Of a DNA stretch of 64,000 bases, positions 40,495-41,971 are shown in pieces. Positions within the stretch are counted from its first letter, which is position 1. The number at the start of each line of letters is the position of its first letter. This DNA comes from Candidatus Aenigmatarchaeota archaeon (lineage in GTDB: Archaea; Aenigmatarchaeota; Aenigmatarchaeia; Aenigmatarchaeales; JACQIB01): positions 160,001-224,000 of the forward strand of contig JACQIB010000004.1 of assembly GCA_016198755.1 (NCBI GenBank), read 5' to 3'. The translations under genes and the position numbers were made by a program. The notes beneath the pieces are model-generated. The model was not told the origin of the DNA, did not search any database, and worked only from the letters and a program-made list of their open reading frames with translations.

Positions 40495-40540
40495 AAAATT
40501 TTGGAGGTGATCCAGCCCCACGTTCCCGTAGGGCTACCTT

Positions 40541-40648
40541 CTCATAGGAGTGCAGCCTGGCAAAATTATCCCTCTCAATTCACCTCAGTCCCCACTTGGG
40601 GCCCGCCTTTCTTTCTTTCATAGAGGAAAAATACAGACTACACTTCCT
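40541..40648 (-). other. 16S intron 8 (108 nt, after E. coli ~C1501)
   Basis: Stem GGAAGTGTAGTCTG/CAGGCTGCACTCC; CATA/TATG helix; bulges ac|a and ag|a. Confidence 0.85.
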
Positions 40649-40650
40649 GT

Positions 40651-40681
40651 CTGTCAGTATTGCAGCTTTCACTGCAAAACA
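40651..40681 (-). other. 16S intron 7 (31 nt, after E. coli ~A1499)
   Basis: GTCA-ta|t-GTTTTGCAG...CTGCAATAC-TGAC-ag|a. Confidence 0.85.
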
Positions 40682-40822
40682 TATGACTTAGCCTTTCTTG
40701 TAAGTCTCTGGCTCGACTCTTCCCATACCCATTGCTGGAAACGAAAAAAGCCTCGCCAAAGGCTCACTCAAATGGCTTGACAGGCGGTGTGTGCAAAGAA
40801 CAGGGACGTATTCGGCGAACGA

Positions 40823-41667
40823 ATTCATGCTAGAAGCTTCGAAAAAGGTTTTATAATATTAATCAACTTATACACTGATTGATTAACAAGAACATCATTA
40901 TATTCTTCCTTTACAATATCTATAGCATCTTTTTGTATATTGCCTTCTAATATTGCTATCAATCTTACATAGGGATATTTTTGTCGAATTTTCATAGCTC
41001 TATAAGCAAGTTCTACGGCTTGCAAACGTTTCCTATAATTGAAATTCATTTGCTTTACCTCAATTATTATTTTGGGTATATTTTCAGAAGGCAAGGCAAA
41101 ATCTACTACAAAATTTCTATTGGTCCTCACTAGGGCATGAAACTTATGTGAAATGCCCAATTTCTGAAAGATTTCTATATATCTTTTTTCTTGTTCTGTA
41201 GGACCTTTTATTATTGCACCTTTCAGAGATCTTTCTTTAGACGCCTTTAAACTCATTTTTCTTGCGCGTTCAGTATCTCTAAAAGTGCCGCGTTCGGAAA
41301 TTTCATAATACCTGCGTATTAAGATTTCCCTAGAAGGAATTCTTTGCATGCATTTAATTTCTTCAAACACTTTGTTTATTACTTTTTCGTCTACACTTTT
41401 TCTAAATCCTTTCTCTATATTATAGACTGTGCCTTGACTCTTCCCTATAAACTTTGCTAATTGCCACTGACTCATATTCAATATTAAACGTAGAATCAGC
41501 AATCTCTGCGGTTTTGTATATATAATTTCAGGTTTCAGTTTCCTTAAACTGTCTGTTGTTCTATATACTTCATCACAGAGATTTTTTAATTTTAGCTTGT
41601 TTATGGTAATCACCGATATTATATTATATCGGTAACTACTATTTAACCCTTTACAGAGCTTCTAACT
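40823..41667 (-). mobile_element. 16S intron 6 (845 nt, helix 43 loop, E. coli ~1363) carrying an endonuclease-like ORF
   Basis: Full hBHBh': GGCGAACG/CGTTCGCC, TCAT/ATGA, bulges aa|a and at|t, GTTAGAAGCT/AGCTTCTAGC. Confidence 0.9.
40825..41613 (-). CDS. intron-encoded HTH(XRE) + PD-(D/E)XK-like putative homing endonuclease
   Basis: MSQWQLAKFIGKSQGTVYNIEKG HTH; PTEQE...VVDFAL...IIIEVK nuclease-like core; AT-rich, wholly inside intron. Confidence 0.75.
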   Translation of the reverse strand: MITINKLKLKNLCDEVYRTTDSLRKLKPEIIYTKPQRLLILRLILNMSQWQLAKFIGKSQGTVYNIEKGFRKSVDEKVINKVFEEIKCMQRIPSREILIRRYYEISERGTFRDTERARKMSLKASKERSLKGAIIKGPTEQEKRYIEIFQKLGISHKFHALVRTNRNFVVDFALPSENIPKIIIEVKQMNFNYRKRLQAVELAYRAMKIRQKYPYVRLIAILEGNIQKDAIDIVKEEYNDVLVNQSVYKLINIIKPFSKLLA

Positions 41668-41971
41668 TTATGACGTTCGCCTACTATGAATTCCGGCTTC
41701 ATGTGGGCGAGTTGCAGCCCACAATCTGGACTAAGATTGGGTTTAGGGGGTTAGCTTTGCCTTTCGGCATTGCATCCCATTGTCCCAACCATTGTAGGAC
41801 GCGTGTAGCCCAGAGAATTCGGGCCGTACGGACCTACCGTCGCCCACTCCTTCCTCTGCTTTAGCAGCAGCGGTCCCGCCATTGTGCTCTCTCCCCGGAG
41901 GGAAAGGTGGCAAATGGCAGCGTGGGTCTCGCTCGTTAACGGACTTAACCGCACGCCTCAAGGTACGAGCT

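Follow-up and report, generated by a model that had tools for sequence, protein, structure and literature searches.

An HTH and PD-(D/E)XK protein within a 16S rRNA intron likely belongs to an undescribed enzyme family by which archaeal introns are copied into genes that lack them

In the available text of two accounts, only LAGLIDADG ORFs are reported from archaeal rRNA introns (PMC4496867, PMC6125680). In the 64-kb stretch of DNA analyzed here (the window), an intron of the 16S rRNA gene carries an ORF for a helix-turn-helix (HTH) joined to a predicted PD-(D/E)XK nuclease domain (Table 1), which raises the question of whether a nuclease class unrelated to LAGLIDADG enzymes also spreads introns of this type.

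Table 1. Coordinates of the 16S rRNA gene, its insertions, and the elements of the helix 43 intron and its ORF within the window.
Feature	Position	Strand	Basis or remarks
16S rRNA gene, archaeal	43971-40503	minus	Rfam RF01959; eight insertions relative to an intron-free relative
LAGLIDADG insertion near the 5' end of the 16S gene	43901-43181	minus	223-aa ORF 43833-43162, Pfam
Short ORF-less 16S insertions (three of six)	43122-43094, 42978-42918, 42706-42676	minus	29, 61, and 31 nt; boundaries approximate
Short ORF-less 16S insertions (rest of six)	42132-41972, 40736-40721, 40681-40543	minus	161, 16, and 139 nt; boundaries approximate
BHB intron, 845 nt, helix 43 loop of 16S	40823..41667	minus	Motif scan, spliced alignment, RNAfold
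BHB 5' strand: h GGCGAACG, H UCAU, bulge AA^A, h' GUUAGAAGCU	41657..41681	minus	Motif scan
BHB 3' strand: h' AGCUUCUAGC, H AUGA, bulge AU^U, h CGUUCGCC	40814..40838	minus	Motif scan
Left arm of predicted homing site, TAGTAGGCG, 5' exon	41678..41686	minus	Role inferred
Right arm of predicted homing site, CGCCGAATA, 3' exon	40809..40817	minus	Role inferred
TATA-like box TTAAATAG, candidate internal promoter	41639..41646	minus	Read by eye
Inverted repeat TAGTTACCG-N14-CGGTGATTA	41606..41639	minus	Candidate operator and/or RNA hairpin
ORF, 262 aa from GTG	40825..41613	minus	ORF list; starts of relatives
XRE/Cro-type HTH, residues 41-82	41368..41493	minus	Pfam HTH_3, E 1.7e-5, above cut-off
PD-(D/E)XK domain, residues 139-261	40831..41199	minus	Alignment, predicted model, profile
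Nuclease residue E142	41190-41188	minus	
Nuclease residue D171	41103-41101	minus	
Nuclease residue E185	41061-41059	minus	
Nuclease residue K187	41055-41053	minus	

A preliminary description of this locus had proposed a clean hBHBh' (bulge-helix-bulge) intron with the TGA of its ORF inside the BHB helix, and our analysis confirmed both points. An initial BHB scan with permissive criteria yielded hundreds of chance rows; the ends given in Table 1, with 18 paired positions, had the top score among the candidate rows listed. The exon helix (GGCGAACG/CGUUCGCC) is 8 bp and the intron helix h' is 10 bp, and the 4-bp central helix UCAU/AUGA, in which the stop codon sits, is flanked by the 3-nt bulges AAA and AUU. 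Cutting after the second base of each bulge releases 845 nt from 41667 to 40823. RNAfold of the whole region recovered these ends (z -7.6 relative to 20 shuffles), and removal of the intron left a gap-free alignment to an intron-free relative, with the host RNA colinear. The GC content of the intron is 0.31, compared with about 0.5 in the exons. The spliced helix 43 site, previously put forward as the intron-less allele, occurs letter for letter in two related genomes (L035 and L049), and no further copy of it with up to 4 mismatches was found in the host genome. We take the insertion point to be approximately E. coli 16S position 1363 (±1); all site numbers use the E. coli 16S gene as the reference and were calibrated with landmark positions.

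The intron is not a one-off assembly error, because another run from that study (X2) yielded a contig that reproduced 40511-41879 without any difference. More than 0.9 of the sampled words were present in four groundwater runs from one study. Two RNA runs (X19 and X20) contained small shares of the words, none of the intron sequence, and no clean sign of the organism; one RNA contig across the intron site carries five other letters and thus belongs to another allele. The insertion near the 5' end of the 16S gene has 14 bp paired at its ends, with a weak exon-side helix. The gene looks unlinked, since no 23S or 5S rRNA gene was detected at the Rfam cut-off in the window. The 0.89-Mb host genome encodes splicing endonuclease (EndA) subunits and RtcB ligase. 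RtcB (G000:C5:42797-45628) matched in two pieces inside a single 1010-aa frame, which suggests that the ligase predicted to join the spliced rRNA contains an intein.

The preliminary description had assigned an XRE-type HTH and a PD-(D/E)XK/Vsr-like nuclease core to the protein. The HTH was borne out by the HTH_3 match; Pfam, NCBIfam, and single-sequence PDB searches found nothing beyond it. A first model from 5 rows (pLDDT 74) had no Foldseek match below 1e-3, and a second model from an 86-row alignment reached a pLDDT of 92.5. The predicted models contain the alpha/beta restriction-endonuclease core of PD-(D/E)XK enzymes, and together with the family alignment they uphold the C-terminal nuclease fold and its catalytic residues. 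Foldseek comparison of the C-terminal domain gave a match at E 7e-4. The best structural match was PspGI (3bm3; Z 13.1, rmsd 2.2 over 118 residues, 17% identity), followed by a row at Z 10.1; because response-regulator folds reach Z 8-9.5 against the same domain, PspGI alone stands clear as a fold match. The structure of I-Bth0305I (Z 8.9, rmsd 3.1, 96 residues) falls inside that unrelated response-regulator range.

In profile searches, the best PDB match to the C-terminal domain was the I-Bth0305I catalytic domain (3r3p, E 0.004). The T-x-x-E motif, the strand-2 Asp, and IE align between the two, with Lys at Asn208 and G-x-Y-W-H absent; the family profile reads IEcKel opposite IEVNGVYW(H213A) of 3r3p. 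The classical part of the earlier assignment therefore stands, with an E...D...ExK arrangement, but the Vsr-like part does not because Lys replaces Asn208 and G-x-Y-W-H is missing. Membership in Vsr/EDxHD was rejected on the same alignment, in which neither the catalytic His (H213 of I-Bth0305I) nor the Asp that follows it is matched, although the layout of an N-terminal DNA-binding module and a C-terminal nuclease is EDxHD-like, with an XRE HTH rather than NUMOD as the module. As judged from alignment and model, the active site is a canonical PD-(D/E)XK one, close to but not EDxHD/Vsr. LAGLIDADG membership was also rejected, as the protein has no such Pfam match and its predicted model has another fold; no LAGLIDADG family was among the 21 Pfam families matched by the 86 aligned members, 6 of which weakly matched DUF559. 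I-Ssp6803I was not among the matches listed in the sequence-profile and structure searches.

R42, E67, G109, E142, L149, and D171 are conserved in at least 90% of the 86 rows. Among the 40 members found inside introns, E142 and D171 are invariant, E/D185 is kept in 35, and K187 is kept in 23; all four catalytic residues are present in the eight members at site 1363. The replacement of K187 in 17 of the 40 members, and the lack of the ExK motif in the pair at site 144, count against reading the protein as a homing endonuclease.

We found homologs of the protein inside many other rRNA introns. A word search gave 4 relatives, and a profile search gave 286 representatives (E≤1e-3), some of them longer and with several matched stretches. 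In the phylum of the host, 42 of 371 genomes match the family (E≤1e-8), and mapping to intron-free 16S placed 25 family ORFs inside 16S genes of 22 genomes at sites near 144, 511, 697, 908, 946, 947, 1197, and 1363. We sampled 401 genomes of Micrarchaeota, the phylum of a Micrarchaeia record (L122); 17 contained a match, and each of the 18 matches fell within a 16S gene, with nine copies at site 1197, seven at 1363, and single copies at 932 and near 200-260. Overall, we mapped 40 relatives to 16S insertions, which occupy ten sites and come from two archaeal phyla, and every 16S-borne family ORF in both phyla lies on the rRNA strand. BHB ends were resolved for 36 of the 40 (weakly for G205) and by eye for G454 and G464; G186 and G684 were placed approximately, near 890-916 and near 200-260, respectively. 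The later end scans required a colinear spliced junction together with a BHB motif, and the BHB in relatives is thus not independent evidence because it formed part of the search rule. Metagenome scans added no new family members, and no family member lay in a 23S gene at the Rfam-scanned loci, which does not by itself establish absence from 23S genes. Four genomes (G334, G348, G349, and G352) had weak matches to the HTH only, and 16S was not found at the locus of the matches in G015 and G327.

Both classes of ORF share host genes, since 36 of the 40 other long ORFs in the same 16S genes match LAGLIDADG families; site 908 hosts either a LAGLIDADG or an HTH-nuclease ORF. We also observed a 278-aa ORF (L065:1022-1855, minus strand) in a 16S insertion near 1310 with a weak CI-type HTH (E 0.004), which matches neither the HTH-nuclease family nor LAGLIDADG and possibly represents a third class. 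Three other 16S insertion ORFs (L038:3183-3743, L125:633-1133, and L130:2387-2938) had no Pfam match at 0.01, and those of L125 and L130 resemble, by eye, the weak LAGLIDADG ORF of L132. Helix 43 loop insertions at or a few bases from site 1363 were seen in L005, L011, L012, L014, L015, and L055.

Other relatives are free-standing. At 10 of 17 non-rRNA loci (L053, L054, L056, L058, L059, L063, L064, L102, L104, and L107), the gene lies tail-to-tail behind rps11, often with repeated HTH units. Most of these loci are multi-HTH, five have rpoD on the other side, and two copies are broken. Seven of the multi-HTH proteins, including six that are rps11-linked, form a single clade. In the host genome, rps11 and rpoD are about 7 kb apart (G000:C3:234893-242112), and the two genes are neighbors in several relatives. 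A 366-aa relative outside rRNA (L057:3251-4351) has two nuclease-domain matches and no HTH match. In Micrarchaeota, a free-standing gene of the site-1363 clade (L121:2492-3271) has an ATG start and retains the head repeat, and it lies 150 bp behind a 16S gene with an empty site. The placement of the rps11-linked and L121 copies would fit the intronless homing described for T4 (PMC2988022, available text). The empty site next to the L121 gene should be cut unless the allele is immune, which counts against the homing reading.

If these proteins mobilize their introns, lineages would be expected to follow insertion sites, and the protein tree has this form. The ten site labels require 9 changes, the minimum, compared with a mean of 23.7 after shuffling. 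One label (G186) was joined to 908 after the tree had been seen; kept separate, it brings the count to 10 changes among 11 labels, which is again the minimum. Host phylum required 6 changes where 1 was possible, and a tree with one clade per phylum was rejected (p-AU 9e-112). Support was 99-100 for sites 1197, 946, 947, and 144 and 96 for the site-1363 clade. Left off the tree were two broken copies (G151 and G413), one at a contig end (G088), and L116 and L123, whose 243-aa frame is like that of G016 and was counted once. The recognition helix of the HTH is constant within a site and different between sites, and dN/dS values of 0.09-0.20 in ten close pairs (two pairs were saturated) show, for the aligned genes, that the family is under purifying selection.

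Empty and decayed copies accompany the intact ones. Helix 43 was covered in 25 of 30 same-order 16S loci, representing 24 genomes, of which 21 had an empty site, 2 had an ORF-bearing intron, and 1 had a 93-nt ORF-less intron. Broken copies comprised a frameshift (G016) and a remnant (G413) at site 1363 and a split ORF (G151) and an early stop (G713) at site 1197. The coexistence of empty, full, broken, and ORF-less alleles is the gain, decay, and loss pattern expected for homing elements, and the homing-like behavior proposed in the preliminary description gains support from these alleles and from site-linked lineages across phyla. Because the relatives group by rRNA site and not by host, they likely constitute an undescribed enzyme family that copies archaeal introns into intron-free genes.

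The heads of the introns may hold a record of the target. We searched for 8-mers with one mismatch that relate the intron head to the exon and compared the counts with shuffles (p≤0.05). Such exon look-alikes were found in 14 of 35 family introns and in none of 18 LAGLIDADG introns, the latter being those with confident ends among 35 entered as controls. By group, sites 1197, 1363, and 947 each gave 0/200 shuffles, with the group p-values overstated since members at the same site are kin; no look-alikes were found at sites 144, 511, 697, 908, and 946. Most site-1197 heads have two direct GGTCNGTA repeats around an AT-rich box upstream of the ATG, and GGTCNGTA is the exon sequence at the site-1197 junction; one head (G097) contains a 12-mer identical to the spliced junction, including the unusual base of its host. 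Site-1363 heads have a TATA-like box followed by an inverted pair, TA(G/A)T..CCG-N12-15-CGG...CTA/TTA, which resembles the empty site TAGTAATCG-N15-CGGTGAATA; the 12- to 15-nt spacer is loose for a rigid dimer, a point against the operator reading. The site-947 head has an inverted TT(A/G)AACC...GGTTTAA across the start.

These findings support a model in which the protein is probably a homing endonuclease. Splicing endonuclease and RtcB of the host would excise the intron from pre-rRNA, and a short transcript would start from the TATA-like box within the intron. Two HTHs, probably in a dimer, would bind the inverted repeat arms of helix 43 (TAGT...CG-N15-CG...A.TA), positioning the nuclease domains to cleave between the arms, where the intron lands, with repair copying the intron into the intron-free site. 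Insertion would separate the arms, which are 15 nt apart in the spliced or empty allele, by 845 bp, so that the occupied allele would be protected; a preference for the intron-free allele is accordingly part of the model. Binding of the protein to the look-alike repeat that overlies its promoter would, in addition, lead to self-repression of the kind seen with I-TevI. The helix 43 sequence named in the preliminary description does exist as an intron-free allele, but the predicted target is likely wider than the 23-mer given there because intron heads resemble the outer arms TAGTAGGCG-N15-CGCCGAATA.

Whether the host copy itself is active depends in part on its start and head. The frame of the 262-aa ORF first described is present, but its GTG start is doubtful, and no in-frame ATG occurs in this copy. 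Genes of site-1363 relatives begin 8 to 11 nt past the same upstream motif (ATG in four of nine genes of the clade, GTG in one, ATA in three including the host copy, and ATT in one), and ATA at 41604, giving a protein of 259 aa, is therefore the probable start. An AT box comparable to the TATA-like one is seen by eye at the equivalent place in the site-1363 relatives. The inverted repeat of the host copy is a candidate operator that may imitate the empty site; it also folds as a 14-bp RNA hairpin across an SD-like GGUGA and the GTG, and such a hairpin over GGUGA is possible and compatible with an operator role. The resemblance of the host copy's head to the site in its host is within the range given by shuffles (p 0.54). 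Its repeat matches its own arms at 6/9 and 6/9 positions, compared with 7/9 and 8/9 for a Micrarchaeota-type site, perhaps a sign that the intron was imported from another host or that this host has escaped.

These features could also mean that the family homes but that the host copy is silenced or decaying, having lost its ATG while host helix 43 drifted from the recognized sequence. Consistent with this, besides the missing ATG and the better fit of the head repeat to the Micrarchaeota-type site, the same-site neighbor G016 is frameshifted, and dN/dS between the two is 0.29, above the values elsewhere. We regard this reading as unlikely, since the frame is intact with its four catalytic residues kept, and ATA, ATT, or GTG starts recur in 5 of the 9 site-1363-clade genes, two of which have a mutual dN/dS of 0.14; a weak start may thus reflect regulation rather than decay.

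A passenger role is still less probable in our view; in this reading, an HTH-nuclease resembling restriction enzymes, toxins, or repressors would use existing BHB introns as safe havens without homing itself. In fold, the protein comes closest to restriction enzymes and to HTHs of the C-protein/HipB type, free-standing forms occur outside rRNA, and the co-resident LAGLIDADG introns could drag neighbors along by co-conversion. However, a passenger would not be expected to sort by insertion site across phyla, to have site-specific recognition helices, or to have flanking exon copied into its promoter region. Finally, we consider a role on RNA very improbable, in which the protein would serve as a maturase or assist rRNA processing and the exon look-alikes would be elements of RNA structure: the site-1363 repeat does form a stable hairpin, and some PD-(D/E)XK folds cleave RNA (the fold matches include Can2 and Cdn1), but ORF-less BHB introns at the same site suggest splicing without a helper, XRE HTHs bind double-stranded DNA, and DNA binding is favored over an RNA hairpin because the site-1197 look-alikes are direct repeats that form no hairpin and the site-1363 repeats of G473, G651, and G589 contain non-wobble mismatches (A-C, T-T, or G-A), with GGUGA missing from G651, G589, and G464.

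The homing endonuclease reading invites comparison with known systems, as given in the available text of the sources cited. Like I-Bth0305I and other EDxHD enzymes, the family has an N-terminal DNA-binding region, a linker, and a C-terminal restriction-like nuclease (PMC3239194, PMC2677866) with a shared T-x-x-E, D, and IE core, has intron-borne and free-standing members, and has upstream control hairpins; a dimer on a pseudo-palindromic site is shown for those enzymes and inferred for the HTH-nuclease family. In contrast, the family has ExK without G-x-Y-W-H and an XRE HTH in place of NUMOD repeats, and it occupies protein-spliced archaeal rRNA introns, whereas EDxHD enzymes are found as stand-alone inserts, within split inteins, and in the group I introns of phages (PMC3239194, PMC2677866). 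I-Ssp6803I (PMC2677866) has the same canonical PD-(D/E)XK chemistry and also resides in an intron of a stable-RNA gene, but in a cyanobacterial tRNA group I intron rather than a BHB intron. The best structural match, PspGI, is a type II restriction endonuclease, whereas the family protein has a fused HTH and its intron has no methyltransferase partner. I-Ssp6803I is a single-domain tetramer that is not known to carry a separate HTH.

LAGLIDADG BHB introns (PMC4496867) belong to the same class of intron and reside in the same host gene, with the ORF likewise on the rRNA strand; they too cluster by site, occur as remnants and without ORFs, and use site 908, but they encode an unrelated nuclease fold, and the 18 control heads had no exon look-alikes. 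Position 1363 is absent from the main text of that study, as far as this was available. I-TevI (PMC2988022) offers a parallel in control, since it binds a homing-site-like operator over its own promoter and represses itself, with a hairpin over its ribosome-binding site, and the T4 seg and mob genes (PMC2988022) are free-standing relatives beside conserved genes; those enzymes, found in phage group I introns, are nucleases of the GIY-YIG or HNH type, and sequence kinship is not expected. The same tree argument has been applied to LAGLIDADG insertions in CPR bacteria (PMC11270868), and in the available part of its supplement DUF559, PDDEXK, and Vsr were not found, with the HTH matches listed (2/8) being accession letters. 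The accessible text of PMC13565253 covers seven families, including PD-(D/E)xK and EDxHD, and that of PMC8813620 concerns a subject other than the HTH-nuclease family. A literature search with most subscription journals outside its scope returned no description of an HTH and PD-(D/E)XK family in archaeal rRNA introns.

We tentatively extend the homing reading to a broader proposal that may well hold but that we stop short of favoring, in which a new DPANN HTH and PD-(D/E)XK homing family uses a recognition helix specific to each target, is self-repressed by operators copied from the target, and is seen at all stages of invasion. The stages would be free-standing genes behind rps11 or beside an empty 16S gene, BHB introns at ten sites, jumps between phyla, and decay. 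The free-standing L121 copy beside an empty site would be a test case for the way in which mobile introns originate. Several family introns lie in or near conserved 16S stretches and may bias DPANN amplicon surveys. The family offers natural pairs of small modular enzymes (about 260 aa) and predicted long targets, and specificity is directly testable because the target is written into the intron head; if true, operator copies would reveal the recognition sequence of each enzyme ahead of experiment. If these introns also host an enzyme class unrelated to LAGLIDADG, BHB introns would be shown to be open vehicles for any nuclease.
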